A DNA stretch of 53,953 nt. Source: a virus (Duplodnaviria; Caudoviricetes). The notes beneath the pieces are model-generated. The model did no database searches, had not been told where the DNA came from, and was given only the letters and a program-made list of their open reading frames with translations. Below, one piece after another: positions 34,628 to 41,986 of this stretch. Location of the stretch: positions 1-53,953 of the IMG/VR virus record IMGVR_UViG_3300005573_000115. One strand, 5' to 3'. The translations under genes were made by a program, and so were the position numbers. How positions within the stretch are numbered: position 1 is the stretch's first letter; the number at the start of each line of letters is the position of its first letter.

Positions 34628-34675
34628 GAGGATCCCTGAGACGGAATCTCAGGGATCCTCCTTTTTTTGGGAGGG
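34628..34675 (+). terminator. Hairpin + U-tract + SD unit
   Basis: 14-bp stem GAGGATCCCTGAGA/TCTCAGGGATCCTC, T7, GGGAGGG. Confidence 0.8.
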
Positions 34676-34682
34676 ATGCCGT

Positions 34683-34898
34683 ATGACGAAGACACTGGGA
34701 TCATGCTCATTGGGGACCATATCCGCCGTTGGTGAGAAATTTCAACTCACTACCAGGGGCGGTAACAGCCTCCTTCTGACGAAGGAGGAACTTTCGGAAA
34801 TGCTTCTCTGGGCAATCGCCCAGAGAGAAAAGGAGCAGGAGATAAGACTACAACTTCCCACGGCATATGTGGCAAGTATGGTCCGTCTAGGATTCTGA
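34683..34898 (+). CDS. Hypothetical protein
   Basis: ATG 34683 behind SD. Confidence 0.6.
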   Translation: MTKTLGSCSLGTISAVGEKFQLTTRGGNSLLLTKEELSEMLLWAIAQREKEQEIRLQLPTAYVASMVRLGF

Positions 34899-34914
34899 CG
34901 CCTTCGGTTGCTCT

Positions 34915-34964
34915 GGAATCCCGAAGAACGAATTCTTCGGGATTCCTCTTTTTTTTGGAGGTGA
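34915..34964 (+). terminator. Hairpin + U-tract + SD unit
   Basis: 14-bp stem, T8, GGAGGTGA. Confidence 0.8.
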
Positions 34965-34969
34965 TGTCC

Positions 34970-35257
34970 ATGTCGTACAATGGCTGGACGAATCGCGAGA
35001 CCTGGGCCGTAGATCTCTGGCTCACAGATGAGCCGGGGAGAGTTCCTGACATAGAGGTTGCTCCCGATCCCGACAGTCTTCAGGAATATGTCGAGGATCT
35101 GTGGGAAGACTTCCGCAGATACGTGGCAGACCTGTGGAAGAAGTCAGTCGGTTCGTCGCATGGCGATTGGGTCGCCGACATGATCGACGACGCATTCGTC
35201 TATTGGGATAAAATCAACTGGGAGGAGATTCACAAAAACCTCTACAGCACCTTCTAA
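34970..35257 (+). CDS. Conserved phage protein (YNGWTNRETW family)
   Basis: MSYNGWTNRETWAVDLW...INWEEI. Confidence 0.75.
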   Translation: MSYNGWTNRETWAVDLWLTDEPGRVPDIEVAPDPDSLQEYVEDLWEDFRRYVADLWKKSVGSSHGDWVADMIDDAFVYWDKINWEEIHKNLYSTF

Positions 35258-35273
35258 AATCCGACTCTTGGTT

Positions 35274-35328
35274 AGAGAAACCCTCGAAGGGATTGCAACT
35301 TCGAGGGTTCTCTTTTTTTTGGAGGTGA
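35274..35328 (+). terminator. Hairpin + U-tract + SD unit
   Basis: AACCCTCGAAG/CTTCGAGGGTT stem, T8, GGAGGTGA. Confidence 0.8.
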
Positions 35329-35332
35329 GAAA

Positions 35333-36001
35333 ATGGAGAGGTATTCTCGTCAGGACGTAGACGGCAAGGCCGTCTATGTCACCTCGTCCCGGAACGGGGC
35401 GTGGGGTGCTTATCCCCACGCCATCGAAGAGGATCCCTGGGTCATACCGACGCGGATAGAGCGTCGATATGACCCCACATGGGATCCGTGGCTACCAGAG
35501 CCGCAGATCACGGCCACCCACGCCCTGGGCCTCGCCCACGGGCACGAGTGGGCAAGCATCCTCGGGCGAAACCCGTCCTTTCCGAAGGACGGTCTGTCCG
35601 CCTGGAATCTGGCGGGCAAGATCGAGATTACATGTAAAGGAAGAGGCTACACTCCTTCCTGGCAGGACCCGGAAGCCATTACGGGCATTCGGTTTCCCGA
35701 TCTTGTCCCTTATTGGCGTGGGGGTGCGATGCACATCCATCGCACCGCCACCGGCCGCCTCCGATGGGCAGTGATGCCCTCGGGGACGGCATACATCGCC
35801 GTGTACCGACCAGAGGGGCTCGCCCTCGCCGCCCGCGTCGGCTCCTCGTCCCGCCTGATCTACGTCGCGTACACGGACGTTCCCGTGTACGCGCGCCACG
35901 TAGGAGCCCTCCGTTATGCACTAGGAGCGTTAGGAGCGCTCGATGGTGAGCCGGATCTCACCGAGGCGGTACCAGTCCTTGGCGAAACATCTACGCGCTA
36001 G
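35333..36001 (+). CDS. Hypothetical protein
   Basis: 222 aa, strong SD. Confidence 0.7.
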   Translation: MERYSRQDVDGKAVYVTSSRNGAWGAYPHAIEEDPWVIPTRIERRYDPTWDPWLPEPQITATHALGLAHGHEWASILGRNPSFPKDGLSAWNLAGKIEITCKGRGYTPSWQDPEAITGIRFPDLVPYWRGGAMHIHRTATGRLRWAVMPSGTAYIAVYRPEGLALAARVGSSSRLIYVAYTDVPVYARHVGALRYALGALGALDGEPDLTEAVPVLGETSTR

Positions 36002-36019
36002 GCGGTATACGCCTAGCCC

Positions 36020-36083
36020 CACCTCCACAAAAAACGAAGCCTCGGAGAATTCGATCTCCGAGGCTTCGTTTTTTGTGGAGGTG
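36020..36083 (+). terminator. Perfect 29-bp inverted repeat covering U-tract and SD
   Basis: CACCTCCACAAAAAACGAAGCCTCGGAGA-ATTCGA-reverse complement. Confidence 0.85.
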
Positions 36084-36089
36084 AAATGG

Positions 36090-36332
36090 ATGGATAGCAT
36101 CTTGAGACCCACTCCGAAAAGGAGACCAATCATCGTGTCTCTATTCAACCCCGCTCACGAAAAACCGCGCTATGTGGTTTTCAAGGGCGGCAGATTCATC
36201 GTCTTCGGGGAGGGCGCGGTCGGCGGCGTTCCCGCCCTCCTGTGTGGGAGCGGATCCAGCAGTTTCTGGATCCGCCGGGAAGACGCCACCTTCGTCAAGC
36301 CGGGGACGGAGGCTTGGGACGCTCTCGGCTAG
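36090..36332 (+). CDS. Hypothetical protein
   Basis: ATG behind GGAGGTG. Confidence 0.6.
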   Translation: MDSILRPTPKRRPIIVSLFNPAHEKPRYVVFKGGRFIVFGEGAVGGVPALLCGSGSSSFWIRREDATFVKPGTEAWDALG

Positions 36333-36342
36333 GGAACCTCGT

Positions 36343-36392
36343 GAGGATCCTGGGAGGTTGCCCCTCCCAGGATCCTCTTTTTTTGGAGGTGA
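36343..36392 (+). terminator. Hairpin + U-tract + SD unit
   Basis: GAGGATCCTGGGAGG/CCTCCCAGGATCCTC, T7, GGAGGTGA. Confidence 0.8.
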
Positions 36393-36396
36393 AATT

Positions 36397-36528
36397 GTGA
36401 CAGAGATGCAGGTTTACGCTTCCGTGGAAGCGTATTTCGTGCTTTTGGCGGTCATCGTGATCGGAGCATATTTCCTGTCGGCGCTGGAAAATGCGCTGAC
36501 TCACCGAAGAAAGAAGCGCCAAAAGTGA
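36397..36528 (+). CDS. Small single-pass membrane protein
   Basis: YFVLLAVIVIGAYFL followed by RRKKRQK. Confidence 0.6.
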   Translation: MTEMQVYASVEAYFVLLAVIVIGAYFLSALENALTHRRKKRQK

Positions 36529-36532
36529 GCAC

Positions 36533-36575
36533 AAGAGGAGAGGGTTTCAACCCTCTCCTCTTTTTTTGGAGGTGA
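36533..36575 (+). terminator. Hairpin + U-tract + SD unit
   Basis: AAGAGGAGAGGGT/ACCCTCTCCTCTT stem, T-run, GGAGGTGA. Confidence 0.8.
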
Positions 36576-36581
36576 TGTTCC

Positions 36582-37145
36582 ATGGATAATGTGGTTTACG
36601 AGTTCGAGGAAGGCCACCGACGACTCCTGATTCTCTACGACGAGTTCCCCCCAAACCCCCAAACTGAGTTCTCGAATCTGGGAACGATGGTGTGTGGTCA
36701 TAGGCGATACATACTGGGGAACGAGCAGGTCTCCTCCGCGGAGGAGATGAACGAGAGGATTCGAGCGCTCCCGAAGGGAAGTCTCGTACTTCCTCTTTAC
36801 CTCTACGATCACTCGGGCGTGGTGATGCAGACAAGGGGATTCTCCGAGATCGACTCTCACGGGTGGGACTGGGGATGCGTAGGATTCGTGTACGCCACCC
36901 CCGAGAAGATCCGGGAGAGTTACATGGTCAAGCAAATCACCAAGAAGATTCGAGAGAGAGCCCAAAGCCTCTTGGAAAGTGAGGTGGAGACGTACAGCCA
37001 CTACCTTAACGGAGAGGTATACGGGTTCATCGCCTACGAAGACGGAGAGGAGGTGGATTCCTGCTGGGGGTTCTACGGGTGGGATTGGGATAAGAACGGG
37101 CTGACTGAACACCTGCCGGAAGAGTTCCGCCCGCTCCTTCACTGA
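36582..37145 (+). CDS. Conserved phage/MGE protein
   Basis: NLGTMVCGHRRY.LG, LPLYLYDHSG, YLNGEVYG, DSCWGFYG. Confidence 0.8.
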   Translation: MDNVVYEFEEGHRRLLILYDEFPPNPQTEFSNLGTMVCGHRRYILGNEQVSSAEEMNERIRALPKGSLVLPLYLYDHSGVVMQTRGFSEIDSHGWDWGCVGFVYATPEKIRESYMVKQITKKIRERAQSLLESEVETYSHYLNGEVYGFIAYEDGEEVDSCWGFYGWDWDKNGLTEHLPEEFRPLLH

Positions 37146-37160
37146 TCCCCATGTGTGAGT

Positions 37161-37213
37161 AGAGAGGGAGGGCATTTTACTATGCTCTCCCTCTCTGTAT
37201 TTTTGGAAGGGAG
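37161..37213 (+). terminator. Hairpin + U-tract + SD unit
   Basis: AGAGAGGGAGGGCAT/ATGCTCTCCCTCTCT, T-run, GGAAGGGAG. Confidence 0.7.
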
Positions 37214-37223
37214 ATGAGATTTC

Positions 37224-37335
37224 GAGAGCGGCTCCTACTCCTACGCTACACTCTTCGACGAGGTGGCGTACTGGCGGAAGGCTAACGCCGTCCACAGTTG
37301 GTTCATGATGCACGCCCAGGACAAGGAGACTTTTC
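37224..37335 (+). pseudogene. Fragment of a YWRKAN-motif phage protein
   Basis: LFDEVAYWRKANAVHSWFM, out of frame with the ATG following the SD, and truncated. Confidence 0.55.
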
Positions 37336-37369
37336 GGTCATCTTCCTCACTTTTTTTGGAGGTGATCCC

Positions 37370-37714
37370 ATGGAGAAGATCCGTGTTCTGGTCTTTCCGC
37401 AGGATGGGAGTGGGGTTCGGGAGGAAAAGATCGCGAACGACTGGAAGGAGATGCAGAAGATCGTAGGGGGGTTCTTCGAGGCCGTCTCTCTTCTGCCAGA
37501 GGGTTACACCCTCTACTGCAACGAAGATGGGCTCGCAGAGAACCTTCCTCCCAACCCTTACACCAGACTTCTGGGACGAGACATCGCTTCGATGGTGCTC
37601 TGCCCGGATGGCCATCATATCCTGGGCACCTTCTTCGTCTCAAAGGAGGACGAGGAAGGAGAGTCCGTATCCCTGACAGATGAGGACATTTCGTTCATTC
37701 TGTCGGACGCCTGA
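37370..37714 (+). CDS. DUF3846-like protein
   Basis: MQKIVGGFFEAV, LYCNEDG...LPPN, ILGTFFV, SLTDE. Confidence 0.8.
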   Translation: MEKIRVLVFPQDGSGVREEKIANDWKEMQKIVGGFFEAVSLLPEGYTLYCNEDGLAENLPPNPYTRLLGRDIASMVLCPDGHHILGTFFVSKEDEEGESVSLTDEDISFILSDA

Positions 37715-37732
37715 CATCCCAAGTCAGGCGAT

Positions 37733-37947
37733 AGCCCCCGGAGTTTTCTCCGGGGGCTCTCTTTTTTTTGAGGGGGTTTCCCCCTTTCACCTCCCAGGGA
37801 CACGGGAGGGGGCAGAGAATGCTCCCTCCCGTTCTTTGTTTGGTGGAGAAAAACCCAAGCGACTAGACGAGTCTCTAGTCTCTACGTTCCAGAAGAAGCC
37901 TCGCTCGAAACTCGGGCGGGGCTTCTCATTTTTCTGAAGGGAGGTGA
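37733..37947 (+). terminator. Cluster of at least three hairpin + U-tract units with no intervening gene
   Basis: AGCCCCCGGAG/CTCCGGGGGCT T8; GGGAGGGGGCA/TGCTCCCTCCC; GAAGCCTCGCTCG/CGGGCGGGGCTTC T5 GGGAGGTGA. Confidence 0.7.
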
Positions 37948-38298: not shown

Positions 38299-38997
38299 GT
38301 GAGTCATTTTCTGACGGCGGTGATCTCCCGGTCGGGAAGCGAGGAGGAGACAAGAAACCTTCTCGCTCCGTTCGACGAGGGGATCGAGGTTGATCCCTAC
38401 GAGAAGCGATGCTGGTGCGTCGGATCCAAGGCACGTGCAGACGTGCTTGCGGAACTGGCGAAGACGATCGGCGTCTATGAGAATCTGGATGAGGCGTTCT
38501 GGAATTCTCATAGAGGGAAGATGGAGGAGGACCCTCTGTGGGCCTGTAGCACGGAAGCGCTACTGGAGCATCACAAATGGATGTCCGAGTTCGATCAGGC
38601 AAAGGAGCAGGCGCTTCTCCAGCATCCTCTGCGGAACGTCCCAGAAGCCGGATGCTCTCAGTGTCACGGGAGCGGAGTCTACGTGACGACCCAAAACCCA
38701 CGGAGCAAGTGGGACTGTTGGGAGATAGGAGGGCAGTTCAACGGGGAGATAACCGGACGACGGATCAGGCCGGACGTGGTTCGCATCGAGGACAACAGAG
38801 TCCCGGTTCCGATCATGCTGGAACTAGAGATCATTCCGTTCGCCCTGATCACGCCAGATGGAGAGTGGCACGAGAGAGGGTCCATGAGATGGTTCGGTCC
38901 GCCTCTCAATCTCAGAGACGACTGGCCGGACGAGGTGCGAAAAATCCTCTCGCAGCATCGAGAGTGCATCGCTGTGGGAGTGGACTGTCACATTTGA
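38299..38997 (+). CDS. Conserved phage protein with CxxCxGxG
   Basis: SHF..V, NPRSKWDCWEIGG, PFALITPDGEWHERG, VDCHI. Confidence 0.8.
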   Translation: MSHFLTAVISRSGSEEETRNLLAPFDEGIEVDPYEKRCWCVGSKARADVLAELAKTIGVYENLDEAFWNSHRGKMEEDPLWACSTEALLEHHKWMSEFDQAKEQALLQHPLRNVPEAGCSQCHGSGVYVTTQNPRSKWDCWEIGGQFNGEITGRRIRPDVVRIEDNRVPVPIMLELEIIPFALITPDGEWHERGSMRWFGPPLNLRDDWPDEVRKILSQHRECIAVGVDCHI

Positions 38998-39053
38998 GTG
39001 AGCGCCGCAAAGGAAGAGAGGATCATAGGGCACCACAAAAGGAGGAGATCGAG

Positions 39054-39560
39054 ATGCCCAAGTCCAAGTCCCAATTTGACCTTAGTGGAGCGCCGGAGGA
39101 CGTGGCGGCCTACTGCCGCCTCGCGTGGAAAAGGTCCTCACCGGCGGCGTATTCGATGTGGATTGATAGGATCCCGGAAATCATCCAGGCCCCTGCCCTC
39201 GCTGATGATCCCAATCGGCCTTATCGGATCGCCGACTGGGCGGTGAGGGAGGTGGCGGGAGTTAGGTGCGCGCCCATCATGGACGCGGCGACCGCACGGG
39301 CGGCCCGCGAAAAAGCAGACTACGCCGCCTCCTTCGCCCCTTCCGCCTCTGCCGAAGCCGTCTACACCGACGTCCGCTCCGCCGCCGCCCACGCCGCCGA
39401 CACATTTGCTACGCCCCCCGCCGCCGCCGCCGACATGTATGCTGCGTCCGTCGCCGCCTACAGAGCTGCCTCCTCTGCCGCTCACGCGGTGCGGCGCTCC
39501 CTGGAGCGTGACGCCCTCTTCCTGGAGGGCCTCGGCGTACTGCTAGGCCTTCCCGCCTGA
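39054..39560 (+). CDS. Ala-rich hypothetical protein, paralog A
   Basis: ATG behind GGAGGAG; aligns with 40296-40817 (PEDVAAYCR.AWK..PEI.QAP.LADDP.RP.RIADWA.R); TGA lies in ribozyme core. Confidence 0.75.
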   Translation: MPKSKSQFDLSGAPEDVAAYCRLAWKRSSPAAYSMWIDRIPEIIQAPALADDPNRPYRIADWAVREVAGVRCAPIMDAATARAAREKADYAASFAPSASAEAVYTDVRSAAAHAADTFATPPAAAADMYAASVAAYRAASSAAHAVRRSLERDALFLEGLGVLLGLPA

Positions 39561-39603
39561 CGAGGCCGGAAGGCCGAAACTCCCCGCAAGGGGAGTCGCG
39601 GGA
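39551..39603 (+). ncRNA. Type I hammerhead ribozyme
   Basis: TCCCGC-CTGACGA-GGCC(GGAA)GGCC-GAAA-CTCCCC(GCAA)GGGGAG-TC-GCGGGA: complete core, all three stems, GUC cleavage triplet 39595-39597. Confidence 0.92.
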
Positions 39604-39634
39604 TACCCGCAAGATTGAGGAGGAGGAGATCAGG

Positions 39635-40030
39635 ATGAAGTGTCAGCACCCTAGCATCCGAATCGTGCGGGAGGAGGCCTTCGTGGGCCCCTTGGGCGTC
39701 CTCGATGAAGAGCCTCGTGCTCACGGGGGAGTCCAAATTACTGAGCGGTGCGCCGACTGCGGAGCAGAACGCACCGTGAACGCAAATCAGGGGTTCCGCG
39801 AGGAAGGTCCCTGGGAGACGCAGGCGTACCGTCGCTTGGCGGACATTGGGGTCCACGTTCTGGGCGTCCAAGGTGGAATCGCCACCGTACAGTCGGGGCC
39901 GTTCCTCGAAAGGGTGACTGTGGCTTCCGTGCGGGCGGCTGCTCATCAGAGCGACGCCATGGCGGCTGCGATCTACCTCGATGTGATGGATCGCATCATG
40001 GAGCTGTCCGGTCCTCGAACGCGTCGGTAA
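39635..40030 (+). CDS. Hypothetical protein
   Basis: C.H...AHGGV...ERCADCGA.R..N.N...EEGPW; strong SD. Confidence 0.7.
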   Translation: MKCQHPSIRIVREEAFVGPLGVLDEEPRAHGGVQITERCADCGAERTVNANQGFREEGPWETQAYRRLADIGVHVLGVQGGIATVQSGPFLERVTVASVRAAAHQSDAMAAAIYLDVMDRIMELSGPRTRR

Positions 40031-40059
40031 ACGACAAGAAGAAGAAGGAGGAGATAGAT

Positions 40060-40272
40060 ATGATCCGTACCGAGTGCGCCGTGTGCTCCAGGGCCGGTCA
40101 GGACAACGCCGCCACACACATCGTGACATGGCACGATCCGCTCTTCCTGGGTGTATCCAGAGAAGAGCCAGTCTGTGGAGAGTGCGCACGGCAGGTTGGC
40201 GATCAGGGTACTGTGCGCCTTATGGGCGATTCCGGGGATGAGTGGGCAGGGGAGTCGCGGGATACCCGCTGA
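40060..40272 (+). CDS. Small zinc-binding protein
   Basis: CAVC...VCGEC; SD GGAGGAG. Confidence 0.6.
   Translation: MIRTECAVCSRAGQDNAATHIVTWHDPLFLGVSREEPVCGECARQVGDQGTVRLMGDSGDEWAGESRDTR
40248..40269 (+). repeat. 3' half of the hammerhead unit
   Basis: AGGGGAGTCGCGGGATACCCGC is identical to the two full copies. Confidence 0.85.
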
Positions 40273-40295
40273 TCCGAAAGAAGGAGGAGATCAGG

Positions 40296-40817
40296 ATGAC
40301 CCAGTTCCAGTATTCCGAACTTTACTTGAACTTGATTGGAGTGCCGGAGGACGTGGCGGCTTATTGTCGTCACGCGTGGAAAAAGTCCTCATCGGTGGCG
40401 CATTCTCGGTGGAAAGAGCGGAACCCGGAAATCGTCCAGGCTCCGAAGTTGGCCGATGATCCGGGGCGGCCCTTCCGCATTGCTGATTGGGCCATGAGGC
40501 GGGTGGCAATAGTCTTCTCTGCTCCCCCCATCGTAGACATACAGAGCGCATGGGCGGCCATCGAAGAAGCGAGATACAGAGGCTCCTTCGGCCTTTCCGC
40601 CCGGGGCGAAGCCGTCCACAGAGCTGCCTGCTCCGCCGCCGCCCACGCCGCCGACACATTTGCTACGCCCCCCGCCGCCGCCGCCGACATGTATGCTGCG
40701 TCCGTCGCCGCCTACAAAGCTGCCTCCTGCGCCGCTCAAGCGGTGCGGAGCGGACCGAAGCGTGATGCCCTTTTGTTGGATGGCCTCAATGTACTGCTAA
40801 ACTCACGCCACGCCTGA
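40296..40817 (+). CDS. Ala-rich hypothetical protein, paralog B
   Basis: Paralog of 39054-39560; TGA lies in ribozyme core. Confidence 0.75.
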   Translation: MTQFQYSELYLNLIGVPEDVAAYCRHAWKKSSSVAHSRWKERNPEIVQAPKLADDPGRPFRIADWAMRRVAIVFSAPPIVDIQSAWAAIEEARYRGSFGLSARGEAVHRAACSAAAHAADTFATPPAAAADMYAASVAAYKAASCAAQAVRSGPKRDALLLDGLNVLLNSRHA

Positions 40818-40860
40818 CGAGCCCGGAAGGGCGAAACTCCCCGCAAGGGGAGTCGCGGGA
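40809..40860 (+). ncRNA. Type I hammerhead ribozyme, second copy (short stem I)
   Basis: CGC-CTGACGA-GCCC(GGAA)GGGC-GAAA-CTCCCC(GCAA)GGGGAG-TC-GCG; compensatory stem II change; GUC 40852-40854. Confidence 0.85.
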
Positions 40861-40883
40861 TACCCGCAAAGGAGGAGATCAAA

Positions 40884-41552
40884 ATGTCCAATTTCCAGTC
40901 CCAGCCGCTACTTGCATGGCACTTTCTACGAAAAGGCGGCGTCACACGCGACGGGCAAACCGTCACGGTGGGGAGCCGTATGCACGTGAACCCCCCTGTG
41001 ATCATGGGCGAGCGCGAGCTTCACGCATCACTCAGGCTGCTCGACGCCCTGCGCTACACGTCGTTTAGTCCAGTCGCGTGCCGAGTTCGCATGAGTGGCG
41101 AGATCATCAAGGGATCAGACAAAATCGTCGCCACCGACCGAGAGGTGCTGGCAATGGTGGACGCGACCAAAATTCTCCATGAGTTTGCCTGCGTGGTGGC
41201 GGAGGAAGCCCTGCAAAAGGCGGGGGTTACTGACAAACGCTCTTGGAATGTCATCGCTTTGAAAAGGCGTTGGCTGTCTGGCGATGATAATGACAGGGAA
41301 TTCTCAGCGGCTAAGGCGGCGGCTAGGGAGGCGGCTGAGGCGGATTGGCGGGTGGATAGGAAAGCTAGCGCGTCTAGGGCGGCTAAGGCGGCGGCTAAGG
41401 CGGCGGTTTGGGCGGCGGATTTGGCGGCTGAGTCGGCGGCTTTTGAGGCGGTCAGCTCGGTTTTGGAGGGGTTTCGGGGGGAGGAGTTTGAGGCAGAACG
41501 TTCTCGCCTCAACGACATTCTCACGCGGATGGTCGAGGAGGCGCTGTTGTGA
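40884..41552 (+). CDS. Conserved phage protein with Ala-rich helical C-terminus
   Basis: LAWHF, LHAS..LDALRY, ILHEFAC, KRRWL.G. Confidence 0.75.
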   Translation: MSNFQSQPLLAWHFLRKGGVTRDGQTVTVGSRMHVNPPVIMGERELHASLRLLDALRYTSFSPVACRVRMSGEIIKGSDKIVATDREVLAMVDATKILHEFACVVAEEALQKAGVTDKRSWNVIALKRRWLSGDDNDREFSAAKAAAREAAEADWRVDRKASASRAAKAAAKAAVWAADLAAESAAFEAVSSVLEGFRGEEFEAERSRLNDILTRMVEEALL

Positions 41553-41986
41553 GGCGTGCCTTTTTCGTCCGACGGGAACCTTCCGTTGACGCCGCCCAAG
41601 CGTCACTGGAACGGGGGCGTAGCGTGCGCTCTTGGAGTGCGTATGGAATGTGTGCCCACGTCCTGCAAGACTGGGCGGAGGACGGCCTTGTGCCGCCCCT
41701 CTGTGAGGCGGAGGAAGTCCCGCCCCTGAGCGGGGATAACGACCGCCGCTGTGCGAGATGTAGGCTTGAGGATGCTCCGGCCTACGCGCACTTCCTGCCC
41801 GGCCTTTGCGCCATCGCCGAGGGCGACGATGCAGATGAGGCCCTAGAGATGGGCATCCGAGGGTCTACTTACGACTGGCTCCCAGTGCTGGCTCTTTTCG
41901 AGGGCGAGGAGGTGGGCACGGATCCTGACGAAGGATGGACCTTGTTTCGGCCTACGCGTCTCTTGTGGGCACGCGAGTATGAGTGA
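41549..41986 (+). CDS. Hypothetical protein
   Basis: GTGA overlap; GLCA, LFEG..VG.DPDEG..LFRP. Confidence 0.6.
   Translation: MRRAFFVRREPSVDAAQASLERGRSVRSWSAYGMCAHVLQDWAEDGLVPPLCEAEEVPPLSGDNDRRCARCRLEDAPAYAHFLPGLCAIAEGDDADEALEMGIRGSTYDWLPVLALFEGEEVGTDPDEGWTLFRPTRLLWAREYE

Follow-up and report, generated by a model that had tools for sequence, protein, structure and literature searches.

How is a phage transcript handled at a gene junction in which the stop codon of one gene lies inside the core of a ribozyme, and in which one strand of that ribozyme can alternatively fold into a hairpin just ahead of the ribosome-binding site (RBS) of the next gene? This question is raised by IMG/VR virus record IMGVR_UViG_3300005573_000115 (Duplodnaviria; Caudoviricetes), which was analysed over its whole length of 53,953 bases, hereafter the window. 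An earlier note on this DNA had described, at positions 39551-39603, a complete type I hammerhead at an operon junction, with its core UGA serving as the stop codon of the upstream gene, a competing GCGGG/CCCGC pairing and a Shine-Dalgarno sequence downstream. Every one of these elements is present, and to them are added a second hammerhead (HH2, the first being HH1), a hammerhead remnant at 40248-40269 and a strong competitor hairpin on the 5' side of HH1. The reading favoured here, with a probability of about 0.6, is that HH1 and HH2 are genuine type I self-cleaving ribozymes that process operon junctions, and that the hairpin downstream of each serves as a lock and cap after cleavage.

HH1 (39551-39603, plus strand) sits between gene A1 (39054-39560, plus strand, 168 aa) and gene B (39635-40030, plus strand, 131 aa), neither of which belongs to a named family. 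Its stem I pairs 39551-39556 with 39598-39603 over 6 bp; the core sequence CUGACGA occupies 39557-39563, and stem II (39564-39575, 4 bp with a GGAA loop) is followed by GAA at 39576-39578. Stem III (39579-39596) has 7 bp, including the A15.1-U16.1 pair, and a GCAA loop, and C17 is position 39597. The UGA at 39558-39560, i.e. U4-G5-A6 of the core, terminates A1. From the position of the motif and the established chemistry of hammerheads, cleavage is predicted between 39597 and 39598, 3' of C17 in a GUC triplet. Directly at the predicted new 5' end, GCGGG (39598-39602) pairs with CCCGC (39606-39610) across a 3-nt loop, giving a flush, 5-bp anti-stem-I hairpin (39598-39610) whose 5' arm is the 3' strand of stem I. 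The Shine-Dalgarno run GAGGAGGAGGAG (39617-39628) and the ATG of gene B (39635-39637) then follow, the start codon lying 37 nt from the cleavage site.

The type I hammerhead is built from three helices around a catalytic core (C3 U4 G5 A6 N7 G8 A9, G12 A13 A14, the pair A15.1-U16.1 and H17), of which stem I is open and the other two are closed; self-cleavage yields a 2',3'-cyclic phosphate and a 5'-OH, and fast cleavage at physiological Mg2+ needs a tertiary contact of stem I with stem II. Both copies in the window possess CUGACGA, GAA, an A-U first pair of stem III, G10.1-C11.1 and C17 within GUC, and all core positions of HH1 match the consensus. A custom descriptor requiring stems of at least 3 bp returned two sites in the window with both strands searched, one with stems I/II/III of 6/4/7 bp and the other with 3/4/7 bp; first-order Markov shuffles contained 0.003 sites on average, and 1 of 300 had any. 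The scan with Rfam and Infernal that the earlier note had proposed as a check gave 0 matches in the window at gathering score, Hammerhead_1 (RF00163) included, and in E-value mode only mis-registered type II matches of 16.7-18.9 bits. A comparison set and a model were therefore built, the set consisting of type I hammerheads from viral contigs found with a loose pattern and the descriptor (101 sites after deduplication), and the model, R1, being a covariance model of 45 of these (6-bp stem I, 47-55 nt, <85% mutual identity) from whose training the window sequences were excluded. Run without filters, R1 gives HH1 60.2 bits (E 6.8e-18) and HH2 47.4 bits (E 1.7e-13), the alignment spanning model positions 1-51 of 51, whereas the next best score in the 53,953 bases, both strands considered, is 15.9 bits. 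The 99% pairing in the R1 training alignment is not independent evidence, because the set was selected that way; the diversity of stems in that set does show that the hammerhead class is real. As a control, Rfam was applied to five other phage loci, where it found 1 of 28 R1 sites and missed 27, reporting in addition one twister-sister; given such low power, the miss in the window reflects the reach of the Rfam model and is no argument against the motif. Compared with RF00163, the window copies thus share the type I topology and the catalytic core, and differ in scoring below the gathering threshold. The loop of stem II reads GGAA, and the 6-bp stem I of HH1 is followed by U-A; in the comparison set, which was partly picked for GNRA loops, a GGAA loop is found in 33 of 82 members and UA after stem I in 37 of 82. 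A pseudoknot between loop II and the flank was discarded as a candidate, as its UUCC complement occurs in copy 1 only, where it is part of the competitor hairpin, and is not conserved.

HH2 (40808-40860, plus strand) has the same core and lies behind gene A2 (40296-40817, plus strand, 173 aa), a paralogue of A1 whose UGA stop (40815-40817) is again the core UGA. Its stem II carries a compensatory G-C to C-G flip and its stem I is weakened, to 3 bp or to 5 bp with a bulged A. The anti-stem-I hairpin (40855-40867) is identical to that of HH1, and the Shine-Dalgarno sequence and ATG of gene C follow at 40870-40886, the start codon lying 29 nt from the cleavage site. The two hammerheads are 1257 nt apart, with genes B, D and A2 between them, and genes B and C, which they precede, are unrelated to each other; each ribozyme stands directly behind one copy of the duplicated gene A and 29-37 nt ahead of the next start. 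Along most of A1 and A2 the DNA is 72-77% identical, and the last 53 nt of the gene before the motif are 72% identical. From the core through the hairpin, 57 of 59 nt agree, both differences belonging to the single compensatory stem II pair, and after the hairpin identity falls to 60% and then to 43%. The alignment of A1 with A2 also contains an 85-nt tract free of mismatches (39378-39462 and 40632-40716), which suggests recent gene conversion between the two. Two homologous hammerheads with their cores kept occur elsewhere, one on a contig from a Bacillota bin (L135) and the other on a metagenome contig (L212). When the four homologues were given to RNAalifold with no structure supplied, the three-way hammerhead junction was recovered; of its 15 pairs, 3 have changes in both partners, and stem I does not vary among the four.

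The earlier note had further proposed that the 3' product would start with a flush hairpin. The HH1 hairpin is estimated at -8.7 kcal/mol, where the background has a median of -2.0. That the flush hairpin marks the class as a whole was rejected: with G-U pairs allowed it is found in 29 of the 101 sites of the first comparison set (32.6 expected), and sites with A+T-rich stems have it in 9 of 83 cases (5.6 expected). Among 123 distinct sites whose stem I 3' strand starts with GCGG, a flush hairpin of at least 4 bp is found in 52, against about 21 expected and with 0 of 300 shuffles reaching that count; the downstream tails are CCGC-like and the loop sequences vary. Since these 123 sites share one stem sequence, a further scan took in any stem I start made only of G and C. 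For all viral loci pooled, with Watson-Crick pairs only and the first five product nucleotides grouped by G+C content, the flush hairpin occurs in 9 of 102 products with at most two G+C (6.3 expected from shuffling; 64 of 400 shuffles reach the observed count), in 6 of 39 with three (1.9; 4 of 400), in 10 of 40 with at least four but not GCGG (2.0; 0 of 400) and in 13 of 30 with GCGG (1.5; 0 of 400). The G+C-rich products other than GCGG were then collapsed to distinct sequences and compared both with shuffled tails and with tails swapped between hammerheads. Fifteen of 73, from 10 loci, have the hairpin, as against 3.4 for shuffled and 5.3 for swapped tails (0 of 1000 in each case). With one product per locus the count is 10 of 57 (shuffled 2.4, 1 of 1000; swapped 3.5, 0 of 1000), and without one contig that holds many copies (L265) it is 9 of 67 (shuffled 2.7, 1 of 1000; swapped 3.8, 5 of 1000). 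Because the observed count exceeds that of swapped tails, the tails are matched to the stem I of their own hammerhead and so covary with it. The hairpin is a recurrent, covarying accessory of phage hammerheads with a G+C-rich stem I and is not peculiar to the phage of the window, and the flush start foreseen for the 3' product gains in support from this.

The hairpin and the hammerhead compete for the same strand, and in 53 of 69 hairpin-bearing sites it is the hammerhead fold that is slightly more stable, with a median difference of -1.7 kcal/mol; the corresponding values are -2.1 for HH1 and +5.7 for HH2. By these modelled energies, the usual balance would be what a post-cleavage lock needs, with the ribozyme winning in the intact RNA and the hairpin winning once the RNA is cut. 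The idea of a lock also fits the appearance of the hairpin with G+C-rich stems, because such products would otherwise stay paired and could re-ligate. Under the favoured reading, the polycistronic RNA would cut itself after C39597 and C40854. The upstream mRNA would keep its stop codon and end in the compact ribozyme, and stem I, after cleavage, would be an intermolecular duplex of only 5-6 bp. The freed 3' strand could then fold onto CCCGC, which is a downstream copy of the stem I 5' strand, and the resulting anti-stem-I hairpin would release the products and block re-ligation. The downstream mRNA would thereby begin with its 5'-OH hidden in a flush hairpin that stands a few nucleotides ahead of a strong RBS, and its 5' end would be expected to be protected, in a standard leader resembling that of RiboJ. 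Processing may be partial or conditional, since HH1 has a strong 5' competitor and HH2 a weak stem I. A target-site duplication was considered as the source of the repeated CCCGC and set aside by reasoning, as the upstream copy belongs to the ribozyme itself. Bacillota, the likely hosts discussed below, use RNase J.

Clusters of hammerheads that flank single genes or short blocks in prophages, and for which the processing of long phage transcripts was proposed, are described by Perreault 2011 (PMC3088659); a 2019 review still treats the purpose of hammerheads in phages and bacteria as undefined (PMC6765202). The window resembles those clusters in its consensus cores in phage DNA, in having more than one same-strand copy flanking single genes or short blocks of varying identity, and in the proposed role, namely the cutting of long phage transcripts into gene-length mRNAs. 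It is unlike them in that its copies come from a hot spring and have G+C-rich stems, an anti-stem-I hairpin and unusually strong competing folds. Two coding-strand copies that flank a short block directly before start codons are what the window holds; such a pair of hammerheads around a small phage gene block is an already described arrangement (PMC3088659), and HH1 and HH2 are new members of a known phage hammerhead class. The anti-stem-I hairpin, however, appears not to have been described previously: the main text of Perreault 2011, in the portions available, contains no mention of it, and the open-licence PMC and bioRxiv literature yielded no description of such a hairpin, or of stop-codon overlap and its statistics, in phage hammerheads. 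RiboJ combines the sTRSV hammerhead with a 23-nt hairpin before the RBS, insulates genes and raises their expression in bacteria, and its terminal hairpin has been proposed to stabilise the mRNA (PMC6206723, as excerpted). The order of ribozyme, hairpin and RBS is the same here, and cleavage would likewise give a uniform hairpin-capped leader. RiboJ is nonetheless engineered and its hairpin is a separate module, whereas in the window the 5' arm of the hairpin is a stem I strand and the two folds are mutually exclusive, so the likeness is one of working mode and not of family membership. The glmS ribozyme offers the opposite case, in that RNase J1 degrades its exposed 5'-OH product (PMC3997798, as excerpted). 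In both systems the coding fragment would be left with a 5'-OH, in a host of the Bacillota type (for the window, a prediction), but the exposed glmS end invites RNase J1, whereas the new end in the window is predicted to be base-paired, with the contrary effect, and there is no ligand-sensing domain.

Other phages in the comparison carry series of R1 matches on one strand: L265, a 13.6-kb part of a 43.8-kb viral contig, has eleven, L093 has ten and L004 five. These phages appear to cut almost every gene junction, and on L265 stem I is particular to each hammerhead and the tail matches it. On L135, a twister-sister (RF02681, 53.9 bits) at 1756-1837 lies about 200 nt downstream of the homologous hammerhead, and the two flank a gene of 59 codons, a typical ribozyme-rich phage context; this clustering of twister-sister with hammerhead is seen in that relative, whereas in the window the Rfam scans detected no ribozyme family besides the hammerhead.

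The fusion of hammerhead and stop codon, which the earlier note had pointed out, is real in HH1 but is not special. Among the 101 comparison hammerheads, 88 have an upstream frame of at least 60 codons ending nearby, and in 17 of these 88 the core UGA is the stop. In 74 of the 88 the stop falls between 13 nt before C3 and the core UGA, with 6 earlier and 8 later, and in the closest relatives it lies 8 nt (L135) and 10 nt (L212) before C3. Stop-codon fusion is therefore nothing unusual in the class, and the nearest relatives do not share it. In the comparison set, the start codon of the next gene lies a median of 33 nt after the cut (84 of 101 scorable). Given how near C3 or the core UGA these 74 stops fall, and given the size of the ribosome footprint, terminating ribosomes would be expected to overlap the 5' half of phage hammerheads as a rule. 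That ribosomes should so generally end at the 5' edge of the ribozyme bears on any model that couples translation with cleavage.

Several points weigh against the favoured reading. Besides the missing Rfam match already given, the comparison sets were picked by the analysis' own patterns and a descriptor that demands perfect stems, and they contain paralogues from single contigs (L265 supplies 6 of the 15 hairpins counted above) and one doubtful member (L125). The energies are nearest-neighbour estimates that ignore tertiary contacts, and by these estimates HH1 and HH2 are thermodynamic outliers. With 20-nt flanks, enforcing the hammerhead costs the 101 comparison sites a median of 0.2 kcal/mol (zero in 48, at least 5 in 3), as against 11.7 kcal/mol for HH1 and 7.7 for HH2 at 37 C; these values fall to 6.8 and 2.8 at 65 C, where the comparison median is 0.0. 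In HH1, the unconstrained minimum free energy is -50.5 kcal/mol, compared with -38.8 when the hammerhead pairs are enforced, and the preferred structure contains the 5' competitor hairpin (39546-39575, plus strand; 12 bp with one internal mismatch). The hairpin, in which the final codons of A1 pair with loop II and stem II's 3' strand, buries the core, the 5' strand of stem I and stem II, and accounts for the bulk of the penalty. It could be a ribozyme attenuator, a translation-sensitive switch or a chance product of a G+C-rich gene end. Shuffling the 5' flank of HH1 reproduced the observed frustration at 37 C in 0 of 400 cases, and shuffling both flanks did so in 0 of 400 for HH1 and 11 of 400 for HH2, the latter being no longer unusual at 65 C (63 of 400). 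In HH2, whose stem I is imperfect, the anti-stem-I hairpin outcompetes the hammerhead even before cleavage (-30.1 vs -26.0 kcal/mol). Finally, the near-identity of the two hammerheads could partly be recent copying, in view of the gene conversion tract, and the remnant at 40248-40269 shows that these elements decay and that the hairpin can outlast the ribozyme.

One alternative is that translation gates the ribozyme, ribosomes that end at the core UGA being expected to sit on stem I, on the core and on the 5' side of stem II. Such gating might have either sign, in that a ribosome could block the fold or could melt the 5' competitor of HH1 and let the hammerhead refold with each departure. The use of the core UGA as stop in both copies, the location of the competitor's 5' arm within the last codons of A1, the greater-than-chance antagonism of the flanks at 37 C and the class-wide nearness of stops, which would make ribosome contact usual, all speak for this idea. 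The same geometry in most phage hammerheads nevertheless marks nothing special here, the closest relatives place their stops ahead of C3, and the 5' competitor hairpin is absent from HH2, L135 and L212; moreover, one ribosome-free interval suffices for an irreversible cut, so that gating could only be kinetic. As an account of this junction, gating is considered unlikely.

A second alternative turns on the layout of the region. Besides HH1 and HH2 there is the 22-nt remnant (40248-40269, plus strand; repeat family D10), which runs from the final nucleotide of loop III through the 3' strand of stem III and C17 to the end of the hairpin, these parts being identical to those of HH1 and HH2. It forms the last eight codons of gene D (40060-40272, plus strand; 70 aa with two CxxC pairs) and lies directly upstream of the RBS of A2. 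A third ribozyme at this place was rejected, as there is no core, no 5' half and no GAAA, and R1 gives no match at E up to 10. The RBS motif AGGAGGAGATC...ATG occurs 5 times in the window, all within 39040-40886, and because of this repetition and the remnant the region looks like a series of gene cassettes joined by a repeated ribozyme-hairpin-RBS junction, one of which would have lost its 5' half. It may be, then, that the junctions are inherited parts of cassettes kept alike by gene conversion, and that one or both hammerheads no longer cleave. The remnant, the broken stem I of HH2, the large misfolding penalties and the 85-nt conversion tract all agree with this account; against it, no core nucleotide is altered in either copy, the 59 nt differ only at two positions that make up a compensatory pair, the conserved island ends exactly at the motif while the preceding 53 nt have diverged, and homologues elsewhere keep the fold via compensatory changes. 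Decay to inactivity is, on balance, improbable.

The favoured reading may also be taken further, with HH1 as a self-locking switch that translation resets, and with the hairpin as an undescribed, conserved product-trapping module and a natural counterpart of RiboJ. In that case, the 5' hairpin at 39546-39575 would keep the ribozyme off until ribosomes finishing A1 at the core UGA melted it, each departure giving the hammerhead a chance to fold. A single successful fold would cut the RNA, whereupon the anti-stem-I hairpin would snap shut, making the step irreversible and capping the downstream mRNA. This extension is speculative and quite improbable in its full form.

Very improbable is the view that the hairpin stands on its own, for instance as a site for a protein or an RNase or as the translation operator of an RBS cassette, and that its overlap with stem I is incidental. 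In its favour, the hairpin is found three times, each time 2-12 nt before the same fivefold RBS motif, and once without a ribozyme. In other phages, however, the 3' arm changes with stem I and the match beats swapped tails; the sequences differ while the pairing is kept, which speaks for RNA pairing with the strand of stem I rather than for recognition of a fixed sequence. The copy that lacks a ribozyme, moreover, carries 8 nt of stem III as well as C17, which makes it a remnant. Nor are the hairpins intrinsic terminators, for those at 39598-39610 and 40855-40867 are followed by AAG.../AAAGG... with no U run, and a terminator scan lists none there. That the elements are instead type II hammerheads in another register, with the GCGGG/CCCGC hairpin as a closed stem I, is next to impossible, as the RF02276 matches (16.7 bits at 39572-39634 and 18.9 bits at 40829-40883; E 1-4) lie far under the gathering score of 37, the CUGANGA required after the hairpin is absent in copy 2 and reads UUGAGGA in copy 1, so that the sequence itself rules the register out, and all four homologues show a perfect core when read as type I.

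With regard to the phage, the minus strand of the window carries genes for the tail sheath, major head, portal and large terminase, and a long plus-strand gene block starts at about 27.9 kb. The phage is myovirus-like and of hot-spring origin, the DNA runs that contain the window being labelled as hot springs metagenome, and HH1 and HH2 lie within a same-strand gene block of about 4 kb. The relatives of its capsid protein (45-63%) are in bins labelled Bacillota, Moorellaceae, Alicyclobacillaceae and Actinomycetes; given the Bacillota bins and the hot-spring label, the host is probably a thermophilic member of Bacillota. Among the genomes with capsid relatives, 1 of 5 (G005) has a match to R1. 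The large terminase frame (24188-27112, minus strand) is 974 aa long, with the terminase match starting near residue 638 and an unrelated PHROG match (phrog_36001) at residues 231-339, and could be a fusion, an insertion or the result of too early a start call. Upstream of the ribozyme region, 34628-37926 (plus strand) holds eight strong terminator-like hairpins (11-17 bp) between small genes, each followed by a T-run and a GGAGG-type RBS / GGAGGTGA, and several sharing the junction TCCTCTTTTTTTGGAGGTGA; these junctions differ in kind from the ribozyme cassettes downstream.

Among 5.8 billion proteins, A1 matched only itself and its paralogue A2 (66% protein identity), and the protein database places A1 and A2 on a contig of 79,730 bases, as against the 53,953-base record, so that a longer assembly of the phage may exist. 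For A1, A2, B and D no match in Pfam or PHROGs rose above the cut-off, and Atlas gave for A1 only leads, to unnamed viral clusters (0.89-0.91) and an Imm5-like protein (0.86); the C-terminal halves of A1 and A2 are alanine-rich. Gene C (40884-41552, plus strand, 222 aa) has a weak DUF7666 match below cut-off and a 12-nt periodic repeat at 41307-41460 that encodes an alanine-rich, AAKA-like repeat. A blastn search of 38900-41600 against phage records gave no match, and searches for related loci with A1 and with 38299-38997 gave no relatives; the same search with gene C led to two distant loci (L008 and L009), both without a hammerhead. A search for sequencing runs that contain the window turned up no RNA run; the contigs of two DNA runs gave exact matches that break at repeats, with no variant over HH1 or HH2. 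Beyond these, the runs held one divergent contig, covering gene C only: this 1,337-nt contig of run X1 matches 40914-41226 over about 310 nt, in which there are 62 differences, and departs from the window before 40914. The same sample thus holds a related phage variant, whose junction region was not recovered.

What the locus contributes beyond its own phage is a design rule drawn from about 300 other phage hammerheads, by which a G+C-rich stem I is often accompanied by a downstream copy of its 5' strand. That copy could drive the release of the products and hide the new 5'-OH just before the RBS. If confirmed, the rule would offer a route to better annotation of these ribozymes, Rfam thresholds having passed over nearly all of the control-locus sites, and Bacillota and thermophiles would gain natural insulator parts from it. 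The rule would also explain how ribozyme cuts can stabilise the downstream messages of phages, where the cut made by glmS destroys its message.

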